64,000 nucleotides of DNA from a virus (IMGVR_UViG_3300035670_000028:32001-96000); one strand, 5' to 3'; shown: positions 14,299 to 42,922, counted from the first letter of the stretch. Notes: generated from the letters alone by a model not told the origin. Program-made: numbers and translations.

Positions 14299-14322
14299 TA
14301 GCTAATTCCTTAGCTTGAGTGA

Positions 14323-19648: not shown

Positions 19649-19666
19649 AGCACTGGAGATGAACCG

Positions 19667-20242: not shown

Positions 20243-20258
20243 GGAGAAGGAGCACACC

Positions 20259-20846: not shown

Positions 20847-20860
20847 GGGCGTGAGGGCAG

Positions 20861-25400: not shown

Positions 25401-26381
25401 ATGCCGCTGAATAAGGATTTGGAGCCCATTGAGCTTCCGATGGAGCTCAAGTTTGGTAGACCTGTCAAGACTGAGTACCTCAATGCCCTCGACGCGCTCA
25501 AGGTCGAGCTCGTGGACCACCCCACACGTCAACAGGCGTGGAATGTCGCGTGGCACTACGTCAAGGCGACGTGGGCCGATCGCCCGGACATCGATCCGTC
25601 TCGTGCGACAGAGCACGAGCTCTCCAAGAACCTCGAGGACGTGTTCGGCGGCAGGACCCTGCCCGCTCCGATGGAGTGCCTAGGCTTCACGTTCCGCCTC
25701 AGTGGCCTCTCCTTCCAGGATGTGACCCACATCATTCGCCACCGAGCTGGAACGTTCGCCGCGCAGTGCACAGGTGATCGCGACCTCCGCGACGATGCAG
25801 CAGTCATTCCTGAGCCCGTCCAGAACTCCCCCGAGTTCCTCGAGCGCTGGAAGCAGATCGTGGACGACGCGAAGGAGCTCTACGCCGACATGACCGACTC
25901 CAAGGTCGTCTCGATGATGGACGCTCGCCTCATCCTGCCGAAGTGCATGACCTCGTTCTACTACATGCGCCTGCCCCTCAAGGACCTCGTCGGGTTCATC
26001 TATCAGCGTAAAGATGTTGCAATCCAAACCGCCAGTGACAATATTCTTGCCGTTAAAATGGCTGTTGAAGTTGCAAAGGTCATTCCTGAGTTCACTTCTA
26101 TGATTGATTTTGATAAGCCTGACATGCATTTTGTAAAGACATTTAGAGTCAAGGACGGTGATAAGTGGGTTTCTAGAGGAACAAACTTGTATTGGCCTGC
26201 ACAGAAGAACGATATTTTCGAATATCACCCGAATGACACGATTTATCAGTCGACCAGAGAAGATCTCAATGGCACTGATGGTGTGGGTCCACAGAAGAAG
26301 TTCACAGAGCATTGGAACGCAGGCCTCGCTGAGTTCAATCAGATCAAGTCTGATTATAATGCCTGGCGTTCTCAAAAGTGA
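25401..26381 (+). CDS. Divergent ThyX-like flavin-dependent thymidylate synthase
   Basis: FTFRLSG, HIIRHRAGTFAAQCTGDR, DARLILP. Confidence 0.75.
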   Translation: MPLNKDLEPIELPMELKFGRPVKTEYLNALDALKVELVDHPTRQQAWNVAWHYVKATWADRPDIDPSRATEHELSKNLEDVFGGRTLPAPMECLGFTFRLSGLSFQDVTHIIRHRAGTFAAQCTGDRDLRDDAAVIPEPVQNSPEFLERWKQIVDDAKELYADMTDSKVVSMMDARLILPKCMTSFYYMRLPLKDLVGFIYQRKDVAIQTASDNILAVKMAVEVAKVIPEFTSMIDFDKPDMHFVKTFRVKDGDKWVSRGTNLYWPAQKNDIFEYHPNDTIYQSTREDLNGTDGVGPQKKFTEHWNAGLAEFNQIKSDYNAWRSQK

Positions 26382-26417
26382 TTAGTACTTTCTAGTACTA
26401 GAAGCATAGTTATCCTC

Positions 26418-26600
26418 ATGAAGCAAGAAAAGATCTCAATTGATATGGACACACATCGTCTTCTCAAAGTCTACTGTGCTGAGAGAGATTTAAAGATGGG
26501 TGCCTTTGTCGCGAGACTGATTCGAGAGAGGATTAGCGATGAACGAGAAAATTTGCGCCCAGTGCAAGACAAGATTTTTGCCAAAGAATCGATTAAGTAA
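26418..26600 (+). CDS. Ribbon-helix-helix DNA-binding protein
   Basis: KISIDMDTHRLLKVYCAERDLKMGAFVARLI. Confidence 0.65.
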   Translation: MKQEKISIDMDTHRLLKVYCAERDLKMGAFVARLIRERISDERENLRPVQDKIFAKESIK

Positions 26601-27435
26601 TAAGTCTGGTTTCTTCTTCTGTTCAAAAGAGTGCATTTATCTTGCACAAAAGAAGAACGGTGTCACGTATGAGCTTCGTCGAAAGAGATCGTTAGAAAAG
26701 TACGGTAAAGACTTTCCAATCTCTTGTGATGAGATCAAAGAAAAGCGCAAGAAGAATAATATTGAAAAGTATGGTGTTGCTAATACGTTTGAGCTTGATG
26801 CTGTTAAAGAGAAGACAAAGAAGACCACACGTGAGCGATATGGTGTCGATGTCTACTCACAAACCATAGAATTCAAGTCTAAAATTGAGGAAACAAATCT
26901 AAAGAGATTTGGGTACAAGTCTCCAATAGAAAATCCTGATATTCTCGCACAGCGCCGTCAAACAATGACAGACCGATATGGTGGACCATCAACTTTAGAG
27001 TCGCCTATTCTACGTGAAAAAATGGAAGCGACTTGTCGTGATTTGTTTGGAACATCGAATATAGTCATGTCACCGCAGTTTATTTCATCATCTATGGATA
27101 AGAAATTGCTAAAGACACACGGCAAGACATGGCAGCAGTACATAGATGATCTACCAGCTCTTCAGGATTATCGTCGTAAAGTTGAACACATTACACGGCA
27201 GCAAGCAGTTGAAACTTTGCCCTACTATGATAAATGGGGTGAATATCATCTTGATCACAAATTTTCTATTGCTGAAGGATTTAGGCAAGGGTTATCACCA
27301 GAAATCATTGGAAATATTGCAAATTTGGAATTTATTCCTGCCCACGAAAATATGAGTAAGCAGGATGATTGTTCAATTGACAAGCATAGTCTACTATTAG
27401 AAATTGAGAGGATGAAAGGTCATAACAATGAGTGA
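26539..27435 (+). mobile_element. Free-standing HNH homing endonuclease
   Basis: CxxC Zn finger, repeated (K/R)YG units, YHLDHKF..NL..HENMSK; AT-rich. Confidence 0.75.
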
Positions 27436-27901
27436 AAATAAGTTTGGACGTACTTTGAAGATGTATCTTGCCGCAGGCTGGTTCAATCCCGTTCAGGATG
27501 CTGAACTCACTAGACTTGAACAGATCATGGAGGCACGTAAGGACTGGATTGAGATGGCGTCTCCTCGTCGTATCTTCATCTGTCCGCCAAATGCTTCGCG
27601 CGAGGTTCAAGATGCGACATATCAGGGCAATCTGAAGCACATTCGAGAAGCAGATTTTCTTGTAGTCAATACGCGCGACAAGGATCTAGGGACTATTATG
27701 GAGTGTGGATATGCCACTGCTTTCGACAAGCACATCATCTACTTCTGTGCTGGACTTCCTGCCGGCGCAAAGTTCAACCTGATGTTGAGCAGGTCAGGTG
27801 CGCGTGTGTGCACGACCTTCGAGCAGCTTGAGGACTACCTGGATCGCTGCAAGGCGGCAGGCGAGATGCTGTACGAGCCCTACGACAAGGAAATTGAGTG
27901 A
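27428..27901 (+). CDS. Nucleoside 2-deoxyribosyltransferase / (d)NMP N-glycosidase family
   Basis: MYLAAGWF, ADFLVV, DLGTIMECGYA, NLML. Confidence 0.8.
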   Translation: MSENKFGRTLKMYLAAGWFNPVQDAELTRLEQIMEARKDWIEMASPRRIFICPPNASREVQDATYQGNLKHIREADFLVVNTRDKDLGTIMECGYATAFDKHIIYFCAGLPAGAKFNLMLSRSGARVCTTFEQLEDYLDRCKAAGEMLYEPYDKEIE

Positions 27902-29140: not shown

Positions 29141-29503
29141 ATGAGGATCACAGAGGGACAGCTTCGTAGGATTATTCGACAGGAAGTGAAACGGCTTCAC
29201 GAAATGCCAGCTCGCCGCGGCGGTTCAACGTTGCGCGGCTTTAACAAAGTTTTTCTTGACGGCGACCCAGAATTTGCTGATTTTACAATGTCAGTTGCAA
29301 AAATGCTTGGTAAGCCTGTAACAGCGGTCAAGATGGTTTCTACTGAGGACGACAGCGACTATTATGATATGTACATTGAACAAATACAGGGTGAAACGCC
29401 TATAAGCGTGCCAGGATTTCCGGGTCAAGCTTCACAAGGGACACTTCAAGGAATGCCTGTAGTATTAACAAATGACATGGGTGCTGGCTTCATTTTCATG
29501 TGA
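29141..29503 (+). CDS. Tagged late protein
   Basis: MRITEGQLRRIIRQEV..LHE; ATACTTA at 29077. Confidence 0.65.
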   Translation: MRITEGQLRRIIRQEVKRLHEMPARRGGSTLRGFNKVFLDGDPEFADFTMSVAKMLGKPVTAVKMVSTEDDSDYYDMYIEQIQGETPISVPGFPGQASQGTLQGMPVVLTNDMGAGFIFM

Positions 29504-29567: not shown

Positions 29568-29870
29568 ATGCGGTCAGACTGTTTAACAGACTTACCGAAG
29601 ACAGGTGACCTCGTTCGCGGCACTCGAGAGTTTGGGTCCTGCATCGAGGCCCAATTGTGGAACGAGAACTTTGTGATGTCGTACCCAGACGAGCCTTGGG
29701 ACACTGCGACTATTGCAGTGTATATTGAGCCGGTCTCCCGAGAGGAGCTTGGTGAGATTAGTCCAAGGGTTCCTCACAGTGGCCTTGGTCCGTTCCACCG
29801 GATCTTCTACAAGAATCGGGTGTGGCTTGTGTACGGCGATGATTCACTGGAAGCTGTGAAAGGAGAGTGA
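29568..29870 (+). CDS. KOW/SH3-like microprotein
   Basis: PKTGDLVR. Confidence 0.55.
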   Translation: MRSDCLTDLPKTGDLVRGTREFGSCIEAQLWNENFVMSYPDEPWDTATIAVYIEPVSREELGEISPRVPHSGLGPFHRIFYKNRVWLVYGDDSLEAVKGE

Positions 29871-30217
29871 GCGAGATGAGCGAGATTGAGAGTGCTGAGG
29901 CACCGGTGGAGAAGAGAATTACACAGGCCCTGATCGATAATGCCTTCAGCTGCCTCGATGGCCACGGGCGGCTAACCTATGCTAGGGATGAGTGCTGCAC
30001 GATCCAGCAGGTTCTGCGGGAGGCCCACGGTGTGCACCTCTCCCTGAACGAGTGCCGGCGCTTCTGGGAGTGGAGATCGGGGCTGTGGGATGCTTCCTTC
30101 CTCACGCTGGGAGGGGCGGATGAACCGGGCACCCGGAAGGAGATCCTCGAGTTCTTCACCGAGTGGCTGGATGAGCTGGATATCTGGGAGTGGAACACTG
30201 CGGAAGAGGAGGATTGA
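29867..30217 (+). CDS. Hypothetical protein
   Basis: GTGA coupling. Confidence 0.5.
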   Translation: MSEMSEIESAEAPVEKRITQALIDNAFSCLDGHGRLTYARDECCTIQQVLREAHGVHLSLNECRRFWEWRSGLWDASFLTLGGADEPGTRKEILEFFTEWLDELDIWEWNTAEEED

Positions 30218-30218
30218 G

Positions 30219-30677
30219 ATGATCAAGAAGAGGAAGGGCTGGTTCAGGCACATTAAGCCGAGCTCCCCGGTGTGCCCGAGGAAGCCGGAGAGGATGCTGA
30301 AGCGCGAGAGGCTAACGATCCTGTATGAACACTGCGGGAGCAGGATGAACCTATCAGAGATTCCCCTCCCCGAGGGGAAGGGCCTGGCTGATATCCAGCT
30401 GAGCGCTAGCGGGGATGAGGATGGTGATATCACCCTCGAGTTCTACACCCGGGAGGAGTACGAGGAGGAGAACCCCCACTACGAGCGCGAGATGAAGCAC
30501 TACAAGGCAGTGTACGCCAAGTACGAGCAGCTGAGGGATGAGTTCAAGGCCGAGCTAGCTGAGTGGAAGGCGTGGAATGCCGAGCAGGATGCTGCTGATG
30601 TGAAGGAGCGCCTCGAGGCTGCAGAGAGGCTGCTCCGCCAGCACGGCCGGCTCCCTGGAGGCCCGAGTGTGGGCTGA
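30219..30677 (+). CDS. Hypothetical protein, coiled-coil C-terminus
   Basis: RBS GAGGAGG. Confidence 0.5.
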   Translation: MIKKRKGWFRHIKPSSPVCPRKPERMLKRERLTILYEHCGSRMNLSEIPLPEGKGLADIQLSASGDEDGDITLEFYTREEYEEENPHYEREMKHYKAVYAKYEQLRDEFKAELAEWKAWNAEQDAADVKERLEAAERLLRQHGRLPGGPSVG

Positions 30678-30969
30678 TCCTGATCGGGCCATCCTAACCT
30701 ACCCACTCTTTGCGGGAGGCACCCTGGAGTTCGGGTGGGCCCGCTCCGGTGGCGGCATGAGCGTGGGCACGAATCCCCTCATGGCCCGCGTGCTAGTGCC
30801 ACCCTCTGGCGGCGAGTATCCCTCCGGCTGGTTCGTGGTGCAGGGCAAGCGCTCGCTCATCAAGGTGAAGGCCGAGTTCGATACCTACGGTGGTTTCATC
30901 CCAGATTGGCTCCGCGCAGATATGTTCGAGCACCACTACAACCTCCTCAGGATAGGCACCAGTGCGTGA
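30667..30969 (+). CDS. Hypothetical protein
   Basis: Overlapping ORF in array. Confidence 0.45.
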   Translation: MWADPDRAILTYPLFAGGTLEFGWARSGGGMSVGTNPLMARVLVPPSGGEYPSGWFVVQGKRSLIKVKAEFDTYGGFIPDWLRADMFEHHYNLLRIGTSA

Positions 30970-31051
30970 TCTGGCTCGCGAGCTGAGGAGGGGAGATCTC
31001 GTGCGGATCACGCGGTGCATGGTTAAGTTGCAGCGTGGGGATTCAACCTAA
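30962..31051 (+). pseudogene. Truncated GDLV microgene (29 aa)
   Basis: MRDLARELRRGDLVRITR.. closely matches the start of the 31422 gene; stop overlaps the late promoter. Confidence 0.55.
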
Positions 31052-31062
31052 TACTTATCACC

Positions 31063-31332
31063 ATGCGAATCACACTCAACGAGCTCCGCCTGATCATCAG
31101 GGAGGCGCTGGCTCAGCCCATGGAGTTCAAGCAGGCCGAGGAGCTCTACTCTGAACTGATCATGGGTGCCATGAGGGATAACCGCGGGAATGTTTCCGCC
31201 ATGCAGGCCGCCATGCGTGCCATCCCCGATCAGGTGCTCAAGCTCACCGGGTGGAGTGTGGAGGAGATCCAGGCAGGAACCGAGCGGGAAACCCGCGAGA
31301 GGATCGCGGCCATGAAGCAGGGCCGGCCCTGA
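31063..31332 (+). CDS. Tagged late protein
   Basis: MRITLNELRLIIREAL; ATACTTA at 31051. Confidence 0.65.
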   Translation: MRITLNELRLIIREALAQPMEFKQAEELYSELIMGAMRDNRGNVSAMQAAMRAIPDQVLKLTGWSVEEIQAGTERETRERIAAMKQGRP

Positions 31333-31421
31333 ACATTCCCGCCCACCCGGCTACAATTAGGCCAGGATGAGCAAGATTATAATTCCAGAGGATTACTCGG
31401 CCCCAACCCGGATGAGCACCA

Positions 31422-31712
31422 GTGCGTGATCTGCAGGCAGGAGATCTCGTGCGGATCACCCGGCAGCCAACTGATGATCCCCGCGCTGGGTGCTCCCACT
31501 TCTGGTGCGAGGAGGCTGGGCTATCCCTCCCCATCCCCTGGGGCACCGGCTGCCTGGTGGTTGATGTTGATGGCAGGAGCTCGCTGGGTAACGAGCTCAT
31601 TCACTTCATACATGAGGAGCGCGTGTTCGCGATCACCAAGTACCAGGTTGACTACTCGCACCCAGCGGGCCGAGTGGTGAGGCACCTGTGGTGCGAGCTG
31701 GTGGGAGGCTGA
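31422..31712 (+). CDS. KOW/SH3-like microprotein
   Basis: LQAGDLVRIT. Confidence 0.6.
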   Translation: MRDLQAGDLVRITRQPTDDPRAGCSHFWCEEAGLSLPIPWGTGCLVVDVDGRSSLGNELIHFIHEERVFAITKYQVDYSHPAGRVVRHLWCELVGG

Positions 31713-31715
31713 GAG

Positions 31716-31952
31716 GTGAAAGAATTCAGCAGCACCATCAGGCCCGGCGATCTCGTTCGCCCGAACCACTCGCGCGAGCACAATAAGAACAATGTGGGGA
31801 TCGTTCTCGAGATCTGCCAGCATCCACTTGCTGAGAGCGAGTTCATGGCACTCGTAATGTGGCCAGCGAATCCACCGGTGGAGCCAGCCTGGTTCCGGGC
31901 AGGTGGGCTGGAGAGGGTATCCCGTGCAAATGGGATGGGAGATGGGGTATAG
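31716..31952 (+). CDS. KOW/SH3-like microprotein
   Basis: IRPGDLVR..VGIVLE..LERV. Confidence 0.6.
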   Translation: MKEFSSTIRPGDLVRPNHSREHNKNNVGIVLEICQHPLAESEFMALVMWPANPPVEPAWFRAGGLERVSRANGMGDGV

Positions 31953-31959
31953 TGGTACC

Positions 31960-32172
31960 ATGGAGGAAGTGATGGCTGAGCCCAAGTGGAAGAAGTGCAG
32001 GAACCCGGATGATTGGTTCTGTGATGAGTGCCGGCACTGCACGGATCCCGAGTGCAAGAACTGCGGCCTGGATGGGCGCAGGAAGTGGATGAAGCACCTG
32101 GGTGATGATACTGCCCTGTGCGATCAGTGCTGGCCGGCCCACCACATGAAGTACGAGGGAGCCCCGCAGTGA
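31960..32172 (+). CDS. Cys-rich Zn-binding microprotein
   Basis: CDEC, CKNC, CDQC; own promoter 31925-31953. Confidence 0.55.
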   Translation: MEEVMAEPKWKKCRNPDDWFCDECRHCTDPECKNCGLDGRRKWMKHLGDDTALCDQCWPAHHMKYEGAPQ

Positions 32173-32393
32173 GGGTGCGCCCGATTCACGCTAATATTCA
32201 TCCCGGGTGCCTGTTCACACTGGGAGATTTTCCTCAGCCCTACCTGGCTGTGGATGTAGAGATATTGAATCCCGGTTCTACACTCGGGCCCACACACAGG
32301 ATTATTGCTGCTGAGTGCGGAAATAACGGAAAGCCGCGCCAGGTTACTCTGTACTACAGCGATCAGGTGGAGGTGATCGGTGAAGGTGGGTGA
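32169..32393 (+). CDS. KOW/SH3-like microprotein
   Basis: IHPGCLF..VEVI. Confidence 0.5.
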   Translation: MRVRPIHANIHPGCLFTLGDFPQPYLAVDVEILNPGSTLGPTHRIIAAECGNNGKPRQVTLYYSDQVEVIGEGG

Positions 32394-32574
32394 TCTCGTG
32401 GCCTACGTGCTCGATCCGGATCAAATCTACTTGATCGTAGATGGCGAGAGAATGCCTGATGAGAAGGGCGATCCAGATGGATACGCCACTATCTTTCGCC
32501 CAGGAGAAATGTTCAGGAGGATGAGGTACACTATTCTCGAAGCCAACTACAGGGTGGTAAGTGAAGGTGGGTGA
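32380..32574 (+). CDS. KOW/SH3-like microprotein
   Basis: MKVGDLVAY. Confidence 0.6.
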   Translation: MKVGDLVAYVLDPDQIYLIVDGERMPDEKGDPDGYATIFRPGEMFRRMRYTILEANYRVVSEGG

Positions 32575-32755
32575 TCTCGTGGTTTGGAATGGCCCGGCAT
32601 CCGGCAGTGCCTTCACCTACCTCCTGCTCGAGAGGCTGAGTGATATCCAGGATACCTCCATGGGCCTCATGCGCAGGTGGCGGGCACTATCCTGCATGGG
32701 CAGGTTCGAGGTGGTGTTCGAGGAGCACATGAGGGTGTACAGTGAAGGCAGGTGA
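32561..32755 (+). CDS. KOW/SH3-like microprotein
   Basis: MKVGDLVVW. Confidence 0.6.
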   Translation: MKVGDLVVWNGPASGSAFTYLLLERLSDIQDTSMGLMRRWRALSCMGRFEVVFEEHMRVYSEGR

Positions 32756-32930
32756 TCTCGTGCGGTGGAAGAACACCCAGATCGGCAAGGAATCCACCTA
32801 CCTGGTGCTCCGCCCAGATCCTGCGCGCTCGGAGAGCTACCAATCCGAGTGCTGGCAGGCCCTCTCGTGCAGGGGTGCCCTGGTGATCGTGCACGCGGAT
32901 GCAATGGAGGTGATCAGTGAAGCCGGGTGA
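32742..32930 (+). CDS. KOW/SH3-like microprotein
   Basis: MKAGDLVRW. Confidence 0.6.
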   Translation: MKAGDLVRWKNTQIGKESTYLVLRPDPARSESYQSECWQALSCRGALVIVHADAMEVISEAG

Positions 32931-33084
32931 ATTGGCCCGCGTGAGGATCCGCAACTCGATCTTCTACGGCAAGATCGCGCTGGTGGTGGGTGAGCCTAAT
33001 CGGGCCGGTGAAACCGATTACGTGCAGGTGATCTGTGATGGGATCAGGATGATGCCGCTACACTGGCTGGAGCCCGTGGAGTGA
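32917..33084 (+). CDS. KOW/SH3-like microprotein (55 aa, not in ORF track)
   Basis: MKPGELARVRIRNSIFYGKIALVVG..WLEPVE. Confidence 0.6.
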   Translation: MKPGELARVRIRNSIFYGKIALVVGEPNRAGETDYVQVICDGIRMMPLHWLEPVE

Positions 33085-33302
33085 GCCCACGTGCCGGAGA
33101 GCTCTGGGAGGTAACCGAAACCCAGCGGGTGGCTGTGGGCCAGAAGATCGCCACCTTCCTGATCTCCGGCCCTGCCCTCGTGCTGGAGGTGCACAGGAAC
33201 CATGATGGTGCGGGTGATTACTACACGATCCTGTGGGGCGGGCAGGTGAGGGAGATCATCGATTCTGCGCCCTGGAGGAGTTTCGGCGAGAGGATCTCGT
33301 GA
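33081..33302 (+). CDS. KOW/SH3-like microprotein
   Basis: PRAGELWEV..ALVLEV..YTILW. Confidence 0.55.
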   Translation: MSPRAGELWEVTETQRVAVGQKIATFLISGPALVLEVHRNHDGAGDYYTILWGGQVREIIDSAPWRSFGERIS

Positions 33303-33361
33303 TCTGCAGAACAGTTTGAGAAGCGCAGCATATTTATACCAAGATTTGAGGAGAGAAACGT

Positions 33362-33667
33362 ATGAGAATCACGCAAGCGCAGCTCAGGAAGATCATCAAG
33401 GAAGAGGCAGCCCGGGCGAAGGGAAAGCGCCTAAACGAGGAGCTCGGGATGGGTGCCGGATCAGCTGAGCTGCAAACTGCTCTGGATGTGATCTGTGATG
33501 GCTGGAAGGCGCAGTTCGATCCAGGCGATCCTAGCATGGATGCTGCTGGCGGCCGGCCCGCTTGGGATGCCCAGTGTGAGGCAGCCTGCGAGGAGCTCGG
33601 CGCAAAGATCGAGGAGCTCGTAATGCAGATCGAGGATGATCTCTACAATGGTGATTACGGGTATTGA
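33362..33667 (+). CDS. Tagged late protein
   Basis: MRITQAQLRKIIKEE..RLNEE; ATATTTA at 33330. Confidence 0.65.
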   Translation: MRITQAQLRKIIKEEAARAKGKRLNEELGMGAGSAELQTALDVICDGWKAQFDPGDPSMDAAGGRPAWDAQCEAACEELGAKIEELVMQIEDDLYNGDYGY

Positions 33668-33669
33668 AC

Positions 33670-33951
33670 ATGCGAATCACTAAATCACAGCTCAGGAAGA
33701 TCATTCGCGAAGAGGTGGAGAAGGTATCCCGCCCAGGTTCTTTTGCCTTCGGTGAATCACCTGATCCTCAGACTATTCATGATGCATTCTTGAGATTGAG
33801 GGATTTTCGCGGTGAGGTTCCAATTCAAAAACTTGCGAATGAACTTGGAGTTCATGTGAACCGAATTGATTTCAACGGTACCGGTTTAAGAGTAGAGAAC
33901 ACTATTGTTACCGAACTTCTCGGTGATACTCCGTATCGAACAGGTAGGTAG
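33670..33951 (+). CDS. Tagged late protein, possible HTH
   Basis: MRITKSQLRKIIREEV; IQKLANELGV. Confidence 0.6.
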   Translation: MRITKSQLRKIIREEVEKVSRPGSFAFGESPDPQTIHDAFLRLRDFRGEVPIQKLANELGVHVNRIDFNGTGLRVENTIVTELLGDTPYRTGR

Positions 33952-34023
33952 TGTTCCCCCACAAAAGGGAACCCTGAGTTCCCCTCCGTGTAAATCACCC
34001 AGGCTCTGTGTTATGGTTAGGCC

Positions 34024-34236
34024 ATGGGCAATCTGAAGCCGGGCGATCTGGTGTGCAGGGTGAGGCTGGGATCTCGTGATAAGCGCGTGGGAAAGCCCCG
34101 CCTGCTCGGGATCCTGCTCGAGGAGCCCAAGTTCCCGCAGTGGGGAAACTACCCGAAGAGCTACACAGTTCTCACACCTGCGGGGATCCAGATTCTCCGC
34201 GATCAGCCCAGAACCCTGATCGAGGGGGTGCCGTGA
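34024..34236 (+). CDS. KOW/SH3-like microprotein
   Basis: LKPGDLVCR. Confidence 0.6.
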   Translation: MGNLKPGDLVCRVRLGSRDKRVGKPRLLGILLEEPKFPQWGNYPKSYTVLTPAGIQILRDQPRTLIEGVP

Positions 34237-34451
34237 GAGAGTTTAAGCCGGGCGATCTCGTGCACGTGAAGAACTACTTCCGGAATGCTGTTCCGGTTGC
34301 AGGTGGCATTCACGCCATTGTGGTGCATGTTGAGAAGCGCCTCACGGGTTCTTTTTATATGCAGAAGAACCCGCTTGTTGAGGTTCTCACCGGGGATGGA
34401 TTCTTCAACTACTACACCGCCAGCAACCTGAAGCTACTGGAGCGCTCATGA
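34233..34451 (+). CDS. KOW/SH3-like microprotein
   Basis: FKPGDLVHV. Confidence 0.6.
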   Translation: MREFKPGDLVHVKNYFRNAVPVAGGIHAIVVHVEKRLTGSFYMQKNPLVEVLTGDGFFNYYTASNLKLLERS

Positions 34452-34636
34452 TCCCCGGAGCCCTAATCAGGTACAGGGTGGAGTACAGGGAAATGCTGCC
34501 ACACCGAGAGAGCGAGATCTACCTTGTGCTCGATCAGATGAGGCTGGGGGGCGAGCAGTACCTGCAGGTTCTCGGCCGCGGTGAGCTCCTGCACTTCAGG
34601 TTCAACTCCCTGTTCATGTACGAGGAGGTGGAGTGA
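34448..34636 (+). CDS. KOW/SH3-like microprotein
   Basis: MIPGALIRY. Confidence 0.55.
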   Translation: MIPGALIRYRVEYREMLPHRESEIYLVLDQMRLGGEQYLQVLGRGELLHFRFNSLFMYEEVE

Positions 34637-34878
34637 TGGGCAAGCACTGGTGGGAGGAGCACGTGCAGCCCGGAATGCTATTCGTGAGCAAGGTGCACCT
34701 GTACGCTGGATCCGCCAAGAACCCCGGAGCACCTGGATCGCTCGTGGAGCCCGGTGCCACTGCATTCGTGGTGGAGGTTGAGCCAATAGCAGGAAATGTA
34801 ACCTATGCGATCTGTGAGGAGCTGGGGAGGATTGATGCCACCTCATTCCTCTCGGTGTTCTCGCGTGTGGAGGAGTGA
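34636..34878 (+). CDS. KOW/SH3-like microprotein
   Basis: VQPGMLF. Confidence 0.5.
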   Translation: MGKHWWEEHVQPGMLFVSKVHLYAGSAKNPGAPGSLVEPGATAFVVEVEPIAGNVTYAICEELGRIDATSFLSVFSRVEE

Positions 34879-35078
34879 TGGGAACCAGATCTGAAACACT
34901 GCACATGGGCTGGATCCAGTGCACCCAGTGTGGGTGGGGATCCGAGGTTAGCCGCTCCGAGGTGGAGGCAGGTGATTACACCGATCGCCAGGCCTGCGAT
35001 CACTGCGGGATCGGGCCCTGCAGGATCGATTGGGATTGGCCGGATGGCCCGGGGTGGAGATATGAGGAGAAGAGATGA
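34878..35078 (+). CDS. Zn-ribbon microprotein
   Basis: CTQC..CDHC. Confidence 0.55.
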   Translation: MGTRSETLHMGWIQCTQCGWGSEVSRSEVEAGDYTDRQACDHCGIGPCRIDWDWPDGPGWRYEEKR

Positions 35079-35248
35079 GTGATCAAATCTTTATTCCGGA
35101 TTTCATTATCACATCCGGATCAAGTATCGATATTATGAGAGAGCGTGATGATCTCATCTCATTTCTGCTCGCTGAAGCACAGGCAGAATTCGATCGTGAT
35201 ATTATCGAGGCACTAACAAACTCACACACAGCAGAGGAGAAGAGATGA
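35075..35248 (+). CDS. 57-aa microprotein (not in ORF track)
   Basis: ATGA coupling at both ends; DDLISFLLAEAQAEFDRDIIEAL. Confidence 0.5.
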   Translation: MSDQIFIPDFIITSGSSIDIMRERDDLISFLLAEAQAEFDRDIIEALTNSHTAEEKR

Positions 35249-35442
35249 GAGTATCTAGAGAACAGTTCGATATGATCCGTGAAGTGCTAGCACTCCTGCG
35301 AGAGAAGCTACCAGGAGATACTGAGTACAAGTTGGCGCTCAGCCCAATCTGGGCCATCGAGAGGCCACCTCCTGAGCCCCACGAGTTTTCCAGACATATT
35401 TCTATCAATGGCTGTGTGCTGGAGGTGGAGGAGAAGAAATGA
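35245..35442 (+). CDS. Hypothetical microprotein
   Basis: ATGA coupling. Confidence 0.5.
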   Translation: MRVSREQFDMIREVLALLREKLPGDTEYKLALSPIWAIERPPPEPHEFSRHISINGCVLEVEEKK

Positions 35443-35726
35443 ACGCTGATCAGATCGCTGGCATGCTCGTGCTTGGAGTTCCCTTCCTGCTCACACTCAT
35501 CTTCCTCATCTGGCTCTACGGGGAGAAGCGCAGGGATAGGCTCCGCGCGCAGAGGAGCGAGGAGCTCAGGCGGGAGGTGCAGGCACTCCACAATAGCGCC
35601 CTCGATCTCAAGGATTACCTCACCAGCAAGCGGGTTTTCTTCATCGATCTAGACAGATGGGATCCTGAGGCAGCGGAGCAGATCATCGAGATCGCGCGCG
35701 AGATACAGAGGAGTGATAAGAAGTGA
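35439..35726 (+). CDS. Single-TM protein
   Basis: N-terminal hydrophobic helix. Confidence 0.55.
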   Translation: MNADQIAGMLVLGVPFLLTLIFLIWLYGEKRRDRLRAQRSEELRREVQALHNSALDLKDYLTSKRVFFIDLDRWDPEAAEQIIEIAREIQRSDKK

Positions 35727-35929
35727 GAGTGTATGCTACTACAGATGAGGGCAGGAGGTTCCTGCACTCGATTCGCTGTGATGGGCCCGGGTGCGAATCC
35801 GAGATCAAGCCCAATCCTAACATCTCCCAATCCGGTTGGGTGTGGTATGGGCAGGATCACGGCCCAGGCACCACGAGATTAGAATGGGATCACTGCCCAG
35901 ATTGCGATCGGAGAAGAAGTGCCCATTGA
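35723..35929 (+). CDS. Zn-binding microprotein
   Basis: CDGPGC..HCPDC. Confidence 0.55.
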   Translation: MRVYATTDEGRRFLHSIRCDGPGCESEIKPNPNISQSGWVWYGQDHGPGTTRLEWDHCPDCDRRRSAH

Positions 35930-36182
35930 GGTGTTAGGCCGCGATCACGAGGGAAGGGTTAGCTCCCAGCCCCCCATCAAGAGTGGCCCGAACCGCGGGC
36001 GGAGGAGGAGCGAGCCCAGGGGTGTTTGGGTGCCGGCAAGTGGCTACGCTTACGAGGAGCGGCAGGATGCCAAGTGTGCCCACTCTGGCTGGATCAAGGC
36101 AGTGCAGGAGCTAGGCCACCGGGTGGGATCCTGGGATTGCGATGGAGTGCGAAACTACTACGTGTTCAGGGAGGCGAGATGA
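35919..36182 (+). CDS. Hypothetical microprotein
   Basis: Overlapping ORF in array. Confidence 0.45.
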   Translation: MPIEVLGRDHEGRVSSQPPIKSGPNRGRRRSEPRGVWVPASGYAYEERQDAKCAHSGWIKAVQELGHRVGSWDCDGVRNYYVFREAR

Positions 36183-36397
36183 GGGAGAGCTGGAAGCAGA
36201 AGTATGATGAGCTATTCCGTATGTTGGAGAGCTACATCAAGCGGCTTCATACCGCCGAAGAAGAGAATAAGAGGCTCAAGGAGGCGCTGCATAAGATTGC
36301 AGATTGTAATTGCCCTCTTGTAGAAAATGAATATGGATACACCTCAGAACTTTCAGAGTGCCGCATGATCGCGAAGGCTGCGCTGAAGAGTGCATGA
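36179..36397 (+). CDS. Coiled-coil microprotein
   Basis: ENKRLKEALHKIA..IAKAAL. Confidence 0.5.
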   Translation: MRESWKQKYDELFRMLESYIKRLHTAEEENKRLKEALHKIADCNCPLVENEYGYTSELSECRMIAKAALKSA

Positions 36398-36621
36398 GCC
36401 GGTCCAGCGAGAGGTACGCTGAGATCTGCGAGGGAGATCTAATCGCCCTGCACCCGGTGGAGTGGCACTCAGGAACACCGCCCACCACCATGCTCGTGAT
36501 CTCAGCCCAGCCCTACGAAACACCGGTGCGCCCTCGGCCCACAGATCTCGTGGTGCTCACCTCCCGGGGAGAGATCATGCCCCTGCGCCTGGGTGCATTC
36601 CATCCGTACGTGAGGGTGTGA
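36394..36621 (+). CDS. KOW/SH3-like microprotein
   Basis: ICEGDLIAL. Confidence 0.55.
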   Translation: MSRSSERYAEICEGDLIALHPVEWHSGTPPTTMLVISAQPYETPVRPRPTDLVVLTSRGEIMPLRLGAFHPYVRV

Positions 36622-36671
36622 GCTGAATACTTATTGGCAGCGCTATTAGAATCCGCGCGTAGGAGTTAAAA

Positions 36672-36944
36672 ATGAAAGTACCCCTTCTAAAGCAATCCGA
36701 TGGGCGGCCCTCCGCCTCCTTCACCATGATGATCATAGCGTTCACCGTGGTTACCCTGTGGCTCACTGTATCGATCGTTGAGCAGGCATGGGGTTTCCAC
36801 ATCCGCGAGTTCTCGGGAGCGGAGGCCATGAGCTACTTCACCCCGATCGCCACCCTCTACTTCTCGAGGCGCTGGACCGATTCGAAGGCGCCGGCAGCCG
36901 GTGGCAGCACTCCCAGCACGCCCCCGCCCTCTCCCGAGGAGTGA
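36672..36944 (+). CDS. Two-TM holin-like protein
   Basis: Two hydrophobic segments; late motif ATACTTA at 36627. Confidence 0.45.
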   Translation: MKVPLLKQSDGRPSASFTMMIIAFTVVTLWLTVSIVEQAWGFHIREFSGAEAMSYFTPIATLYFSRRWTDSKAPAAGGSTPSTPPPSPEE

Positions 36945-36957
36945 GCCGCTGATCAGC

Positions 36958-37152
36958 ATGCAGGTGGGTGATCTCGTCAGGTTCACATCCCGGCACCTCG
37001 CCTACGATTACGAAGAGCTGGCAGGCACTGTTGGCGTGCTGGTCAGGCCTATTGAGCTACCGCATGCTGATGGTGTGCTGTACCTGTACTGGGAGGCCCT
37101 GTGGCAGGGCAAGTTCATCGTGCTGCACGAGACTGATCTGGAGTGTGTGTGA
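36958..37152 (+). CDS. KOW/SH3-like microprotein
   Basis: MQVGDLVRF..VGVLV..DLECV. Confidence 0.6.
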   Translation: MQVGDLVRFTSRHLAYDYEELAGTVGVLVRPIELPHADGVLYLYWEALWQGKFIVLHETDLECV

Positions 37153-37211
37153 TGAGCCTCCTGTGATCTTCGTCCGTGTAAATGATGCTCTGGTCAGAGT
37201 ATAATTGGATC

Positions 37212-40200
37212 ATGAGCATCATTGATGTTAGGCCTCCCACTCGATTCACTGGTTTACATGCCCACTCAAGTTTCTCAAATTTTGACGGACTTGCATATCC
37301 AAAGTCACACATTGATTTTATCACCTCCGATGCCCAGGGCGGTGACTCCTGGGCGCTGACTGATCACGGCAACGGATCCGGACTCGCCCACGCTCGTTCA
37401 GCCGCTGTCAAGGTGCAGAAGTCAGGAAAGAAGTACCGCCAGCTGTACGGCGTCGAGTTCTACTTCGTTCCCTCCCTCGAGGAGTGGCAGCAGTCCATGG
37501 ACCGCCACCAGCAGTCCATCAAGGACGCAAAGTCCGCCAAGGAGATGCAGGAGATCGCCGAGGAGCCCACAGTCGTCAAGCCTCCCGACGAGGAGGACGA
37601 GCAGGGTGGCCACGTCGTCGAGAACGAGGAGGAGACGAAGGAGTCCAAGCCCGGCAAGCCCGAGTGGAAGAAGTACTACCACCTCGTCGTCGTGGCCAAG
37701 AATCGGGTCGGCCTCGGAAACCTGTTCACCCTCGTCAAGAAGTCGTTCAAGCACGGCTTCTACCGGTTCCCACGCATCGACTTCAAGATGCTCAAGGAGC
37801 ACGGCGAGGGACTCGTGGTGTCGACAGCGTGCGTCGGTGGCCTTGCATCCGGCCTCATCTACAGCGAGTTTCCCGACAGGAAGTTCTCTGAGCTGAGCCC
37901 ATCGCTGTTCACCGGTGAGGCAGCGGAGGCAGCGGTTCGGTCCATTCGAGGCAGGCTCGACAACATGGTGGACCGCTTCGTCGATGCCGTCGGCCGCGAC
38001 AACTTCTTCCTCGAGCTCCAGTTTAACGACCTCCCCGCTCAGCACCTCACGAACAGGTGCCTGATCGACGCGTCCGTCAGGAACGGCATTCCCCTCGTGG
38101 CGACGGCTGACTCCCACTTCCCCTCGCCTGACAAGTGGCAGGCGCGCGAGCTCTACAAGAAGCTCGGGTGGATTGGTGCCAAGCTCGACAAGACCATGCT
38201 CCCCAAGCTGGAGGACATGAAGACGATGCTGTATCCCAAGAACGCCACCCAGATGTGGGACGAGTTCAAGAAGGGCTACGAGCAGCACGACTTCTACCAC
38301 GGTCACGAGGAGCTCGTCCGCGACGCGATCGAGCGGACCCACGACATCGCCTGGGAGAAGTGCGAGGACACGTGGATCGACGTCTCAGGCAAGCTGCCCA
38401 AGTTCGGCACTCCCGAGAAGACGGCATTCTCAATGCTGTCAGACCTCGTGAAGGAGGGCCTCGTTCGCGAGGGTCTCGCTGACAAGCCTGAGTACGTCGC
38501 CCGCGCGAAGGAGGAGCTGTCTGACATCAAGTACCTCGGACACGAGGCATACTTCCTCGCGATGCAGAAGATCTTTCATCGTGCTGAGACACAGACACTG
38601 CTAGGGCCCGGTCGTGGATCGGGTGCAGGTTCACTGGTAAACTTCCTGCTAGGCATTACTCAGATTGACCCTATTCCGTATGGATTGCTGTGGAGCCGAT
38701 TCTTGGGAAGACATCGCTGTCTTCAAAAGGATACACTTGTTCTATCAGAGTCGGGCACAAAACCTATTAGTCGGCTGAATGTGGGTGAAAAAGTCCTCAC
38801 ATCAGGTGGAACATATGAGCGTGTTATTGACAAAGAAGATGATGTAAAGCACGATATTAACGCTCTCATCAAGACGTCCAAAGACAGTTTTTCATGTTCA
38901 CCGAATCATAGATGGCTTGTTAGACGCGATGGCGAAGTGCAAGAAGTGCTAACAACAGACCTCAGAAAAGGTGACAAGCTGCTGTTCATCAAGCAAAAGT
39001 CTCCGTGTGAGTTCGAAGAGGTCGAAATCGATGAAGTGGTCTTTAGTGATAGGCTCGAAGAGTATGTCGATATTGAGGTTGAGAATGACCACACGTTCTT
39101 TGTTTCGACCGCCGGTGACAACTTTGCGCTGACACACAACACTTCTTGGCCTGACATTGACACTGACGCGGGTGATCGCGACGTCCTCATCGACGCAGCC
39201 CGCGACCTATTCGGCGACGATGCCGTCATTCCGGTGTCCAACTTCAACACGCTCAAGCTCAAGTCCCTCATCAAGGACATCGCCAAGTTCTACGACGTTC
39301 CATTCGACGAGGTCAATGCCATGACTGGTCCACTGCAGGACGAGGTGATGGCCTTCGCCAAGGATGAGAACCAGGAGAAGTCCGTCTTCGTCCTCAAGCA
39401 CGAGGACTGCATGAAGTACTCCGAGGGGTACCGCAACTTCATGGAGAAGTATCCTGATGTTGCGGCGCATGTTGAGACCCTCTTCATGGAGAACCGCTCC
39501 ATCGGTCGACACGCCGGCGGCGTCATTATCGCTCCCGCCGAGGACCTCGAGCGGACAATGCCCATCATCAGTGTCCGCGGTGAGCTGCAGACCCCGTGGA
39601 CCGAGGGCATGAACTTCAGAAACCTTGAGGACAACGGCTTCCTAAAGTTCGACTTCCTCGGCCTCACGCTGCTCAAGGACGTCGAGAACTGCATCGCCCG
39701 AATCCTCAAGCGGCAGGGCAACCCGCGGCCCACGTTCGCGGACGTGAAGGCGTTCTTCGACAAGCACCTTAACTGCAGGTACGTCCTGCAGGACGACCCA
39801 AAGGTCTGGGAGCACGTCTATCACAATGCCCGATTTACAGGCGTATTCCAGTTCACTGCCGCGGGAGCCCGAAAGTTCTGCCTCGACGCGAAGCCGAGCT
39901 CAATCGAGGAGCTGGCGGCACTCACTGCGATCTACCGACCTGGTCCCCTCAAGGCGAACGTCCACAGGAAGTATGTCGAGGCGAAGAATAACGCCTCGCT
40001 CATCAAGTACGAGCACCCCGTGATCGAGAAGGTGCTCGGGCCTTCCTACAACTTCGTCGTTTTCCAGGAGCAGTTCATGACCCTGGCAGTCGAGCTAGCT
40101 GGATTCTCCCCCGGTGAGTCCGATCAGCTTCGAAAGACCCTGGTCAAGAAGTCCCTTGACACGATCGGCAAGAAGGGCGACGAGCGGGAGGCGGCCCGAC

Positions 40201-41279
40201 AGAAGTTCATCAAGGGCGCCAAGGAGCTCCACGGCGTCCCGGAGGACATCACTTCCGCCCTGTGGTCGACGATCGAAGCATTCTCGGTCTACGGCTTCAA
40301 CAAGTCACACGCTGTCGCCTACGCGATTGACTCCTACTACGCGGCGTGGCTTCACACCCACTACGAGACTGACTGGCTGGCCACGATCCTGCAGTCCGAG
40401 AACGGCAACCCCGACGGCCTCAAGAAGGCTATCACTGAGATCAAGGCGTACGGCTACCGGTTCCAGGAGGCAGACATTAACTACTCAGGCGATGTATGGA
40501 ACTACTCCGAGGAGCTGGAGGCCTTCGTGCCGCCCCTCTCCTCCATCAAGGGTGTTGGTGACACTGCCATGCAGGAGATCATGCACAATCGTCCGTACAA
40601 GTCGCTGGACGACCTGCTCTACGATCCCGACGGCGAGTGGCGGCACTCCAAGGTGAACAAGACAGCCCTTCGTGCCCTGTGCATGATCGAGGCACTGGGG
40701 TCACTGCAGGAGCTCAAGGACGGCACGATCCGAAACCACAGGCAGCTGCTGGCAATCCTCAGCGACGACAAGAACTACGAGACCCTGCGCAAGGGCAAGT
40801 GGGGCATGACCAAGTCCCAGGTTAAGAAGGCGCTGAAGGACGGCGGCGATCTCGCCACAATCACGACCCGCCTGATCGAGCAGTACCACGGCCTGCCCGA
40901 CTGGACGCGGACTGAGAAGATCATGAACCACGTGGAGATGACCTCGGACGCACCGCAGGACCTCGTGTTCCCGGCGGGCTTCGTCAAGCGTGTGACCGAG
41001 AAGGACGTGCCCTCAGTCTTCACGATCCCTGGTGGAGGCAAGGGTGTGGGCTGGTTCTGCGCCGCAGAGTCCATCCAGAAGACGACCAAGAAGGGCAAGG
41101 CGTTCCTGCGAATCCGCGCGATCGACAGCGACAACAACTCAGGGTGGATCCGCGTGTGGGGCAAGTTCGAGCAGCTTCCTGAGCCTTATACGCTGTGGAT
41201 CGGTGAGGTGGATAATGATGCGAACTGGGGCATGGCAACCACCTCGTGGAAGCTCAAGCAGATCAAGGCTTTCGAGTGA
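37212..41279 (+). CDS. dnaE: DNA polymerase III alpha subunit, intein-containing
   Basis: PHP motifs HAHS/TDHG/DSH, GRGSGAGS, PDIDTD, HAGG, KFDFLGL, YGFNKSHAVAY; start inferred from promoter 37177-37205. Confidence 0.95.
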   Translation: MSIIDVRPPTRFTGLHAHSSFSNFDGLAYPKSHIDFITSDAQGGDSWALTDHGNGSGLAHARSAAVKVQKSGKKYRQLYGVEFYFVPSLEEWQQSMDRHQQSIKDAKSAKEMQEIAEEPTVVKPPDEEDEQGGHVVENEEETKESKPGKPEWKKYYHLVVVAKNRVGLGNLFTLVKKSFKHGFYRFPRIDFKMLKEHGEGLVVSTACVGGLASGLIYSEFPDRKFSELSPSLFTGEAAEAAVRSIRGRLDNMVDRFVDAVGRDNFFLELQFNDLPAQHLTNRCLIDASVRNGIPLVATADSHFPSPDKWQARELYKKLGWIGAKLDKTMLPKLEDMKTMLYPKNATQMWDEFKKGYEQHDFYHGHEELVRDAIERTHDIAWEKCEDTWIDVSGKLPKFGTPEKTAFSMLSDLVKEGLVREGLADKPEYVARAKEELSDIKYLGHEAYFLAMQKIFHRAETQTLLGPGRGSGAGSLVNFLLGITQIDPIPYGLLWSRFLGRHRCLQKDTLVLSESGTKPISRLNVGEKVLTSGGTYERVIDKEDDVKHDINALIKTSKDSFSCSPNHRWLVRRDGEVQEVLTTDLRKGDKLLFIKQKSPCEFEEVEIDEVVFSDRLEEYVDIEVENDHTFFVSTAGDNFALTHNTSWPDIDTDAGDRDVLIDAARDLFGDDAVIPVSNFNTLKLKSLIKDIAKFYDVPFDEVNAMTGPLQDEVMAFAKDENQEKSVFVLKHEDCMKYSEGYRNFMEKYPDVAAHVETLFMENRSIGRHAGGVIIAPAEDLERTMPIISVRGELQTPWTEGMNFRNLEDNGFLKFDFLGLTLLKDVENCIARILKRQGNPRPTFADVKAFFDKHLNCRYVLQDDPKVWEHVYHNARFTGVFQFTAAGARKFCLDAKPSSIEELAALTAIYRPGPLKANVHRKYVEAKNNASLIKYEHPVIEKVLGPSYNFVVFQEQFMTLAVELAGFSPGESDQLRKTLVKKSLDTIGKKGDEREAARQKFIKGAKELHGVPEDITSALWSTIEAFSVYGFNKSHAVAYAIDSYYAAWLHTHYETDWLATILQSENGNPDGLKKAITEIKAYGYRFQEADINYSGDVWNYSEELEAFVPPLSSIKGVGDTAMQEIMHNRPYKSLDDLLYDPDGEWRHSKVNKTALRALCMIEALGSLQELKDGTIRNHRQLLAILSDDKNYETLRKGKWGMTKSQVKKALKDGGDLATITTRLIEQYHGLPDWTRTEKIMNHVEMTSDAPQDLVFPAGFVKRVTEKDVPSVFTIPGGGKGVGWFCAAESIQKTTKKGKAFLRIRAIDSDNNSGWIRVWGKFEQLPEPYTLWIGEVDNDANWGMATTSWKLKQIKAFE
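38718..39140 (+). mobile_element. Mini-intein (141 aa) in DnaE
   Basis: CLQKDTLV start, SPNHRW block B, YVDIEV..HTFF block F, THN end then T; AT-rich; no LAGLIDADG. Confidence 0.9.
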
Positions 41280-41294: not shown

Positions 41295-41546
41295 ATGAAG
41301 TGCTATATCACCAAGTATGATGTGTCCGCTAAGCACATGTGCAAGAATCCCTACGACATATGGGTGCCCCGGCTTGTACAACACGAGTTGGCACCTGTAG
41401 GAATGGGATCTGCTGTGTACACCCCTCTCCCTGTGGGCACTATAGCGCTGCTGATCGATACGAAGAACATGCCAGGCAAGTGCATATACCTCTCAGGCGG
41501 TTTCACCGTGGAGCTGCATGATTCAGATTTGGAGCCCCTATCATGA
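41295..41546 (+). CDS. SH3-like microprotein
   Basis: LPVGTIALL..DLEPL. Confidence 0.5.
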   Translation: MKCYITKYDVSAKHMCKNPYDIWVPRLVQHELAPVGMGSAVYTPLPVGTIALLIDTKNMPGKCIYLSGGFTVELHDSDLEPLS

Positions 41547-41872
41547 GAAAGAAGGATCCTGTGGATCTGTGCGCAGGTGATCTCGCCTGGATCTGGTCCG
41601 CAACCGGCCCCCTCGCTGCCCTGGTTGTTGATATCGATCCCAGCAAGGAGGCACAAACATACTACCTCCTCTCCTGCCCGGACCGAGAGCCTGAGTGGCT
41701 CCCTGAATCGATGGTGTTCTCCTCACCGGAGGCCGTAACCCACCCCTGGCAGGCCCGGCAGGTATACCCATCCCTGATCGCCAATGAGATCGTATCCGTG
41801 CAGCCAATGCCCCAGGGCTGCCTCCCATTCTACCTCGATGAGGTCGAGCGCAGGGTTAAGGAAGATGAGTGA
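41543..41872 (+). CDS. KOW/SH3-like microprotein with gp23 (Gol)-like C-terminal peptide
   Basis: LCAGDLAWI; RQVYPSLIANEIVSVQPM. Confidence 0.6.
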   Translation: MRKKDPVDLCAGDLAWIWSATGPLAALVVDIDPSKEAQTYYLLSCPDREPEWLPESMVFSSPEAVTHPWQARQVYPSLIANEIVSVQPMPQGCLPFYLDEVERRVKEDE

Positions 41873-42177
41873 TGCTTAAAGTAGGTAAGCTCTATTCTTG
41901 CTCTAGATACTTTCTCCTGATCTATCCAGATAAGAAAACTGCCGCCTCCGCCGCTCTCCGATCCCGAGCCGCCGCCCCAGCCTCAGTCGTCGCAGGTTCC
42001 GCCTCTTATTGGAGTAAGCAGTTTGATAAGCCTGTAAGCTATTGCGAACCGGAAACTCCTCTTCTTGTTCTTGCAGTAGAGGAAAAATATGTTGAGGTTC
42101 TGGCAGGAGATCAAAAAGGTTGGATTATCAATAAGGACCGGTTGAATATTAAGGAGATTACCGATGATGCCGCTTGA
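41869..42177 (+). CDS. SH3-like microprotein with Ala-rich insert (tandem copy 1)
   Basis: LKVGKLYSCS. Confidence 0.6.
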   Translation: MMLKVGKLYSCSRYFLLIYPDKKTAASAALRSRAAAPASVVAGSASYWSKQFDKPVSYCEPETPLLVLAVEEKYVEVLAGDQKGWIINKDRLNIKEITDDAA

Positions 42178-42466
42178 AGTAGGTAAACTCTATTCTTGCT
42201 CTAAATACTTCCTTATGCTTTATCCAGATAGGGAAACCGCCACCCACGCCGCCGCCGCCCACGCCGCCGCCCACGACGCCGAGCGCCATGCCGCTTATTG
42301 GACAAAGAAACTCCAAAAGCCTGTAAGTTTTTGCAATCCCGAAACTCCTCTCCTTGTTCTTGCAGTAGAGGAAAAATATGTTGAGGTTCTTGCGGGAGAT
42401 AAAGTTGGCTGGGCTATTTGTCAGGATTGGTTAGAACTTAAGGAGATTGTTCATGAAGCGGCTTAA
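42164..42466 (+). CDS. SH3-like microprotein with Ala-rich insert (tandem copy 2)
   Basis: LEVGKLYSCS; near-identical flanks to copy 1. Confidence 0.6.
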   Translation: MMPLEVGKLYSCSKYFLMLYPDRETATHAAAAHAAAHDAERHAAYWTKKLQKPVSFCNPETPLLVLAVEEKYVEVLAGDKVGWAICQDWLELKEIVHEAA

Positions 42467-42635: not shown

Positions 42636-42636
42636 T

Positions 42637-42915: not shown

Positions 42916-42922
42916 TAAGGAG

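Follow-up and report, generated by a model that had tools for sequence, protein, structure and literature searches.

Why should a single three-letter word be all but missing from 7 kb of a phage genome when the genes beside it contain that word at the expected frequency? The question is raised by bases 32001 to 96000 of the 147-kb virus record IMGVR_UViG_3300035670_000028, which is estimated to be 44% complete. This stretch of 64,000 nucleotides is referred to here as the window, and coordinates are those of the window unless stated otherwise. The locus concerned, island B, is an array of small open reading frames (ORFs) next to the DNA polymerase gene dnaE, and it nearly lacks the trinucleotides GAC and GTC. 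As GAC is the reverse complement of GTC, the feature amounts to one asymmetric word, GTC, being gone from both strands. We report that island B is an accessory cassette that belongs to a horizontally exchanged pool of DNA lacking GTC; the pool is shared by a group of related large phages, apparently from freshwater metagenomes.

Depletion of GTC in island B

The core of island B contains 5 GAC/GTC sites, compared with 226 expected from dinucleotide (Markov) frequencies (approximately 226 to 266 across estimates), giving an observed/expected ratio (O/E) of 0.022. Over the interval 29870-37150, for which the original prediction, made from the sequence alone, had described near-absence against about 230 expected sites, the Markov-corrected count was 9 versus 232 (O/E of 0.039). 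Outside the island, the O/E was 1.03 in the left flank, 1.00 in dnaE and 0.94 in the whole backbone. All eight positions listed previously (31650, 33771, 35393, 35652, 36402, 36875, 36976, and 37042) are genuine sites, and the segment described as site free (~29880-31640) indeed has none between 29788 and 31650. Consecutive 1-kb bins from 30001 to 37000 contain 0, 1, 0, 1, 0, 2, and 3 sites, while ~35 to 50 per kb are found on either side. At backbone density, the Poisson probability of five or fewer sites in the core is log10 P ~ -105, which rules out chance as the cause.

All eight 4-mers containing GTC or GAC are depleted in the islands, and the maximum depletion of any other trinucleotide is 1.7-fold. 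As every flanking context is affected, the bare trinucleotide appears to be the target, which argues against the suggestion that many restriction enzymes with GAC/GTC cores were responsible. The "GWC" motif first proposed is correct as to a depleted 3-nt word, but it is really the single word GTC read on either strand.

Codon bias was likewise ruled out, as the original prediction had held. Island sites number 0.30, 0.15, and 0.46 per kb in frames 1, 2, and 3, respectively, compared with 21.1, 4.9, and 11.9 in backbone genes, and the 787 bases of non-ORF DNA in island B contain no site at all. Because the loss extends to all frames and to these noncoding bases, it is not a matter of codon choice. 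Nor is it confined to Asp and Val codons or accompanied by an O/E near that of the backbone, the two outcomes that had been named in advance as fatal to the claim. Asp is indeed almost always encoded by GAT (98% in island B versus 39% in the backbone), in opposition to the local preference for C-ending codons.

Island B was originally described as a single island. It is real but is one of five GTC-poor tracts on the contig (Table 1), which total 16.6 kb (11% of the contig) and contain 32 sites versus 623 expected from the backbone frequency. The backbone retains ~4,900 GTC/GAC sites (37.5 per kb), and the genome as a whole is therefore not depleted. Tiny plus-strand ORFs in arrays make up islands B, C, and E. 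Island A covers conserved genes; it sets in 290 nt into a structural protein ORF whose 5' end is very GTC rich, spans three further genes and ends in the start of a fourth, and its residual sites are enriched at ATG-ACN and TGG-ACN. In island C, 6 of the 11 sites (41986-42420) lie within 41874-42454, a stretch without alignment to the related contig L075 (L- and G-numbers are labels given in this analysis to contigs and loci of relatives). The leaky right edge of island B comprises the end of a small hydrophobic-protein gene (36672-36944) and one of the GDLV microgenes, so called here after a motif that is described below.

Table 1. Positions of the GTC-poor islands, their junctions, and selected genes (window coordinates, continued past the window's end for islands D and E)
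Feature	Position	Strand	Description
Island A	16972-21050	+	GTC poor; begins within gene for 849-aa virion structural protein (16686-19235; phrog_1645)
Island B, core	29789-36874	+	GTC/GAC-free core; small-ORF array
Leaky right edge of island B	36875-37181	+	~10 sites/kb
Island C	41356-43326	+	Leaky GTC-poor microgene block 3' of dnaE; ~6 sites/kb
Island D	~106398-107927		Covers three genes and first 150 nt of a fourth
Island E	~113245-115186		Reaches contig end
Left junction with L127	30219-30221	+	blastn homology starts exactly at MIKKRKGW... start codon
Right junction with L127	36620-36650	+	Homology ends within promoter-like element GAATACTTATTGG..GCGCTATT
GDLV-type microgene outside island	29568-29870	+	Normal GTC density, 43/kb
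MRIT leader gene	31063-31332	+	N-terminal MRIT..LR.IIRE; preceded by ATACTTA motif
GDLV microgene run	32380-33302	+	Five paralogues, 55-73 aa, GTG starts
Similar MRIT-leader genes	33362-33667 and 33670-33951	+	
dnaE	37182-41279	+	1365 aa (Pol III alpha); flanked by islands B and C; 48 sites/kb
Methyltransferase	44669-45460	+	Beta-class N6-adenine DNA methyltransferase, RsrI/MboIIA/CcrM-like

Selective removal and shared composition

Val GTC accounts for 35% of Val codons in the backbone. In island B its main substitute is GTG, with no rise in GTT, which speaks against the C-to-T loss offered as one cause in the original prediction. Asp is encoded by GAT in 96 to 100% of cases across all islands (39% in the backbone), and C-ending codons for His, Tyr, Phe, Ile, and Thr are favored more than in the backbone. 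Seven of the 32 residual sites stand where ATG or TGG is followed by ACN or TCN, that is, at Met/Trp-Thr/Ser junctions, where GTC/GAC cannot be removed by one synonymous step. The replacements are synonymous and occur in all frames, instead of being C-to-T products formed regardless of coding. GTC was removed by selection on the DNA sequence and not by C-to-T decay.

GAT and ATC are raised ~1.5-fold in the islands, and minimal synonymous recoding of backbone genes reproduces this rise together with part of a rise in GATC. The same recoding fails to yield the 3-fold excess of CCGG, the excess of CCC/CCG, and the lack of AATT/AAAG that are common to the five islands. The k-mer composition of the islands correlates less well with that of the backbone than the islands do with each other, and they keep the backbone's distinctive preference for G-ending Lys, Glu, and Gln codons. 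The five islands thus share a signature beyond the GTC purge. GATC is present at 10.7 to 19.6 per kb in the islands (7.3 in the backbone and ~4 at random), and ACGT is absent from islands D and E; GTC removal accounts for only part of the GATC, CCGG, and ACGT deviations.

Distribution among related phages

Islands B and C are polymorphic among close relatives. In L104 and L105, whose dnaE genes are 83 to 88% identical in nucleotide sequence to that of the window, neither is present, and the epimerase gene, dnaE, and a 323-aa gene are contiguous. In L075 and the near-identical L129 to L131, homologous GTC-free arrays flank dnaE on both sides at the same place as in the window (80 to 94% identity). 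The island copies of these four contigs are identical or 11 single-nucleotide polymorphisms apart, too few for a population test.

Contig L127 (55 kb) carries the same cassette elsewhere. Its backbone matches the genome at 108 to 119 kb (genome coordinates) at only 65 to 77% identity, while a 5-kb block (L127:6246-11388) is 91 to 98% identical to window positions 30220-36647, with zero sites in the aligned parts. The block lies upstream of the region homologous to 108 to 119 kb, compared with its place next to dnaE in the window, and its GC content is 58.5%, versus 62 to 64% in the L127 flanks. At the left junction, the shared start codon overlaps the stop of the upstream gene, which in L127 is a GTC-rich microgene. 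The right junction falls in an ATACTTA promoter-like element, and past it L127 has a GTC-normal leader gene directly behind that element. Other mixtures occur in L132 and L133, including GTC-normal orthologues of island genes and an intragenic switch, and L133 carries a desert like island E.

At least four backbones that are themselves GTC normal, those of the window, the L075 type, L127, and L132, carry the cassette. Its identity between the window and L127 exceeds that of the backbone at a nonhomologous locus, and its composition deviates, GC content differing from that of the flanks in three genomes and CCGG being 3-fold more frequent. These comparisons indicate that the cassette has moved recently between diverged backbones. 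The foreign-lineage origin proposed in the original prediction therefore stands insofar as the DNA has a separate history (absence from L104/L105, movement to L127, and a k-mer and codon signature of its own) and that a 3-nt word has long been selected against in it; a donor genome that is itself free of GTC is unsupported.

GTC deserts are not limited to one GC range. Relative G003 (GC, 39.5%; DnaE, 67% protein identity) has two, at L218:1-1617 and L218:2921-3763, with 4 and 1 sites where ~55 and 29 were expected. They have a GC content of 46% in a backbone of ~40% and lie in and beside its own GDLV-type microgene array, on the other strand. No GTC desert was present in G001 (GC, 57%), and no DNA match to the island was found in cultured phages. 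A survey of 208 loci for 32 trinucleotide classes returned GAC/GTC in this phage group as the only strong deserts that were not A/T rich, ruling out a general trait of phage small-gene arrays or of any trinucleotide.

Two further observations concern island sequences in metagenomic assemblies. L120:1-3232 (GC, 66%) encodes a homologue, at 76% identity, of the structural protein from island A, and its GTC density is about one-third of that of a contig of 64% GC from the same sample (19 versus ~60 per kb), which looks like partial depletion. Assembly breaks recur in GTC-free microgene arrays, namely, at the end of the present contig (island E) and at the starts of L075, L129, L130, L131, L133, and G003; this suggests strain-level hypervariability or paralogue repeats in the arrays.

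Maintenance of avoidance

The substitutions observed between two copies of the island were placed at random on one copy, and the sites thereby created were counted. For the window and L075 (1.2 kb, 80% identity), ~22 new sites were expected (minimum of 10 in 500 trials) and 1 to 2 were seen. For the window and L127 (3,868 nt, 271 differences), ~30 were expected (minimum of 16) and 0 and 2 were seen. Creation of GTC is suppressed more than 10-fold, although the copies differ by 7 to 20%. In dnaE, at 79% identity, sites turn over normally: ~57% are common and each copy has ~20 private sites per kb. The encoded proteins evolve quickly, with 84 nonsynonymous and 65 synonymous codon changes between the window and L127, and the exclusion of GTC is stricter than the constraint on these proteins.

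The boundary between island B and dnaE lies within one continuous alignment of the window and L075 at 88% identity. In the aligned segment 36673-37181 (91% identity), four of the five leaky-edge sites are common to both. The shared junction and edge sites show that the island/dnaE junction is old, yet few new sites have appeared. The avoidance reflects long-lasting selection on nucleic acid sequence.

Proposed explanation and alternatives

As the backbone keeps ~4,900 sites, a defence acting on the whole genome cannot explain a regional purge, and the benefit has to be local or to arise at transfer. We therefore propose, at a probability of roughly 40%, that exchangeable DNA is kept GTC free by a GTC-reading DNA enzyme, which would probably be a nuclease or nickase that attacks DNA in transfer. 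Such an enzyme would have a very short specificity, and its bearer would shield its own DNA by base modification while destroying DNA arriving from a co-infecting phage. Only segments free of GTC would survive, and these could then recombine in where promoters or gene borders are shared. Lineages of cassettes remaining GTC free would persist by spreading, and vertically inherited core genes would never meet the filter. It is rather doubtful that the effect goes so far as to split genomes into a GTC-tolerant vertical core and a GTC-free "exchange compartment," the sole DNA passing between co-infecting phages; if true, a three-letter rule would govern gene flow between phages and would be held more tightly than the proteins that it passes through.

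Several points weigh against a transfer filter. The filtering step is one that we purely infer, and neither a nuclease or nickase specific for GTC nor a modification of it was identified. The genes covered by islands A and D are conserved and probably essential, and these islands end inside genes, a pattern that fits replacement from a GTC-free relative better than selection on selfish cassettes. The CCGG, CCC/CCG, and C-ending signature shared by the five islands could be that of a donor genome. Selection for transferability would, moreover, be second order. Protection of the backbone by the methyltransferase encoded in the window, as originally suggested, is a weak explanation of its GTC tolerance: this is an accessory gene, present in L105 and L040 but not detected in the portions of L075 and L104 that were retrieved, and its occurrence shows no correlation with the islands.

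The points just raised about islands A and D lead to a different and somewhat unlikely account, a source-sink mosaic in which the islands are recent imports, into GTC-tolerant genomes, from a related phage lineage that is GTC free genome-wide because it or its host faces a GTC-directed defence that it cannot block by modification. This would explain why tracts end within conserved genes (island A at 16971 and island D 150 nt into the next gene), why the same families and orthologues exist in GTC-free and GTC-normal versions, and why the five islands have a common k-mer and codon signature that does not derive from GTC removal; the leaky islands A and C would then look partly ameliorated, as they do. 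However, no GTC-free backbone gene has been seen. The related phages free of GWC that the original prediction said should be sought did not turn up, as none of the 105 loci of dnaE relatives, including five at 86 to 89% protein identity, has a GTC-free dnaE, and the cassette was found only in GTC-normal backbones. A search for a GTC-free donor among relatives of dnaE, the island A proteins, and the island D proteins was equally negative, and a 17-mer scan of viral contigs gave chance matches only. Deserts occur in genomes ranging from 39.5% to 62% GC, with a different island GC each time, so that several donors would be needed, and the old island/dnaE junction shared with L075 has gained few new sites since.

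Avoidance could also act on RNA, with mRNA being cut at GAC/GUC by an endoribonuclease, whether a MazF/MqsR-type toxin of the host or a RegB-like enzyme of the phage, although we regard this as improbable. Every island gene is on one strand, and a rule on RNA would give a local, per-ORF benefit. mRNA interferases typically recognize 3 nt with one degenerate position, and since GWC is its own reverse-complement set, rules acting on the sense strand and on the duplex are indistinguishable. However, the motif-free zones do not coincide with whole transcripts or ORFs. The edge of island A is intragenic, 290 nt downstream of a very GTC-rich 5' end, and in L127 a GTC-normal leader gene lies directly behind the same promoter-like motif, past the junction. 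Genes of these families that lie immediately beyond the island are GTC normal as well. Late-type promoter-like motifs are found in island and non-island DNA alike, and GTC content is normal in the tail sheath genes, which are probably highly expressed; expression class is therefore unsupported as the cause.

The depleted word is exactly the recognition trinucleotide of the T7 gp4 primase, 5'-GTC-3' (PMC12839067). Accordingly, GTC could be the template word of the phage's own primase, and tracts without it would be unable to initiate Okazaki fragments and could stay single stranded longer, recombine, and spread more. A template-strand reader would be expected to deplete both strands, and no other DNA has been exchanged as recently as the GTC-free tracts. 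The idea nevertheless has a slim chance of being right, as the per-site advantage would be very small and nothing ties these phages to a T7-type primase. The 44%-complete contig and four to five partial relatives yielded no zinc-ribbon (DnaG-type), Toprim/Toprim_2, or Prim-Pol primase; one subthreshold match to a T7-type ribbon (E value of 0.01) lies within a microgene.

Finally, a mutational footprint, in which a context-specific cytosine deaminase or similar activity erased GAC/GTC by C-to-T change, accords with the raised GAT/ATC but is very improbable and largely refuted by the codon replacement pattern, as minimal recoding alone gives that rise, Val GTC became mainly GTG in island B, sites in frames 2 and 3 were removed while reading frames stayed open, residual sites persist where no one-step synonymous fix exists, and avoidance continues despite ongoing ordinary substitutions.

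Relation to known systems

In phages, motif avoidance is normally weak, genome-wide, and tied to restriction sites of 4 to 8 bp. The present case resembles such restriction-site avoidance in that a short word lies far under its Markov expectation and has been removed synonymously, implying an enzyme that reads DNA. It differs in that the word is 3 bp long and asymmetric, the O/E is 0.02, the depletion is confined to sharply bounded multikilobase tracts, and no cognate enzyme is known.

Small-gene arrays lying between core genes and present or absent in close relatives are shared with T4-type phages, in which hyperplastic regions and modular shuffling of small-gene cassettes mediated by PeSLs (promoter-terminator stem-loops), with recombination at conserved regulatory sequences, have been described (PMC2839356, PMC4122927). 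Here, one junction lies at an ATACTTA promoter-like motif and the other at a start/stop overlap. The present phage, however, is not T4 type by any test made. To our knowledge, no trinucleotide purge has been described for T4-type hyperplastic regions.

Enzymes reading words this short do exist. The chlorella-virus nickases Nt.CviPII (CCD) and Nt.CviQII (RAG) are virus-encoded 3-nt DNA cutters with cognate methyltransferases. In that system, however, the whole viral genome is protected by methylation, whereas here avoidance is regional and no such enzyme was found. ACA-less transcripts, whose entire coding sequences are free of a 3-nt word in every frame, resist the mRNA interferase MazF. That rule follows RNA transcripts, in contrast to the present case, in which tract ends cut genes and family members behind the same promoter-like motif vary in their GTC content.

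Literature searches returned no account of tracts in phage genomes from which a trinucleotide is missing. Here, a 3-bp word is nearly abolished only in bounded tracts, and these are the same tracts that move between genomes. An activity not yet described, reading DNA or RNA with very short specificity, is thereby indicated in these phages or their hosts, and the pattern also suggests a possible mechanism deciding which DNA phages share. In metagenomic contigs of this group, GTC-free tracts mark the mobile gene pool.

Genes of island B and other features of the contig

Island B contains ~28 head-to-tail plus-strand ORFs of 55 to 150 aa, and many have GTG starts that overlap the preceding stop (translationally coupled). 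None of five ORFs tested matched Pfam or PHROG, and no Rfam family or tRNA was detected in the island B region. Many of the ORFs are paralogues sharing an N-terminal K-x-G-D-L-V motif (the GDLV microgenes). An AlphaFold model built from an alignment of eight of them is a small all-beta barrel (predicted local distance difference test score of 74) with weak KOW/SH3-like structural matches (template modeling score of 0.65; E value of 0.08), and the GDLV proteins are accordingly predicted to be small all-beta barrels. The GTC-normal GDLV-type microgene at the left border shows that the purge is independent of gene family. The three MRIT-leader genes within the island each follow an ATAYTTA motif. 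A MRIT-leader gene outside the island (29141-29503) also has normal GTC content, and with the orthologues in L132 and L133 these genes rule out a gene-family property as the cause.

The heptamer ATAYTTA has 34 copies on the contig (for example, at window positions 11188, 29077, 31051, 33330, 36627, 53584, and 60946), mostly 10 to 75 nt 5' of gene starts, that of one tail sheath gene among them. Upstream regions are 12-fold enriched in this heptamer, which is probably a late-type promoter element of this phage. A scan for sigma-70 promoters and terminators gave matches below shuffled expectation.

Elsewhere, the contig encodes gp32-like, RecA, FEN, and DnaB-like proteins, NrdAB, Fpg, a ThyX-like protein, and an SDR epimerase. 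The dnaE gene is intact in the window. In L129:3702-8540 and L131:4310-9148 it is called as two genes (904 and 446 aa) with an inserted ORF of 135 or 249 aa between them, which probably represents an intein-like element or a mobile insertion. A gene for a 570-aa HNH homing endonuclease, on the opposite strand, comes after two adjoining tail sheath paralogues of 1036 and 1019 aa (genome coordinates 7330-15334). A 232-aa protein encoded at 50239-50937 has the C-terminal domain of Fe/Mn superoxide dismutase, an unusual auxiliary phage gene. Patches of low GC content (40 to 48% in a genome of 54 to 58%) lie at 26001-27500, 48001-49800, 59000-59600, and 61000-64000, one of them covering a DUF7487 gene, and may be separate foreign insertions with normal GTC content.

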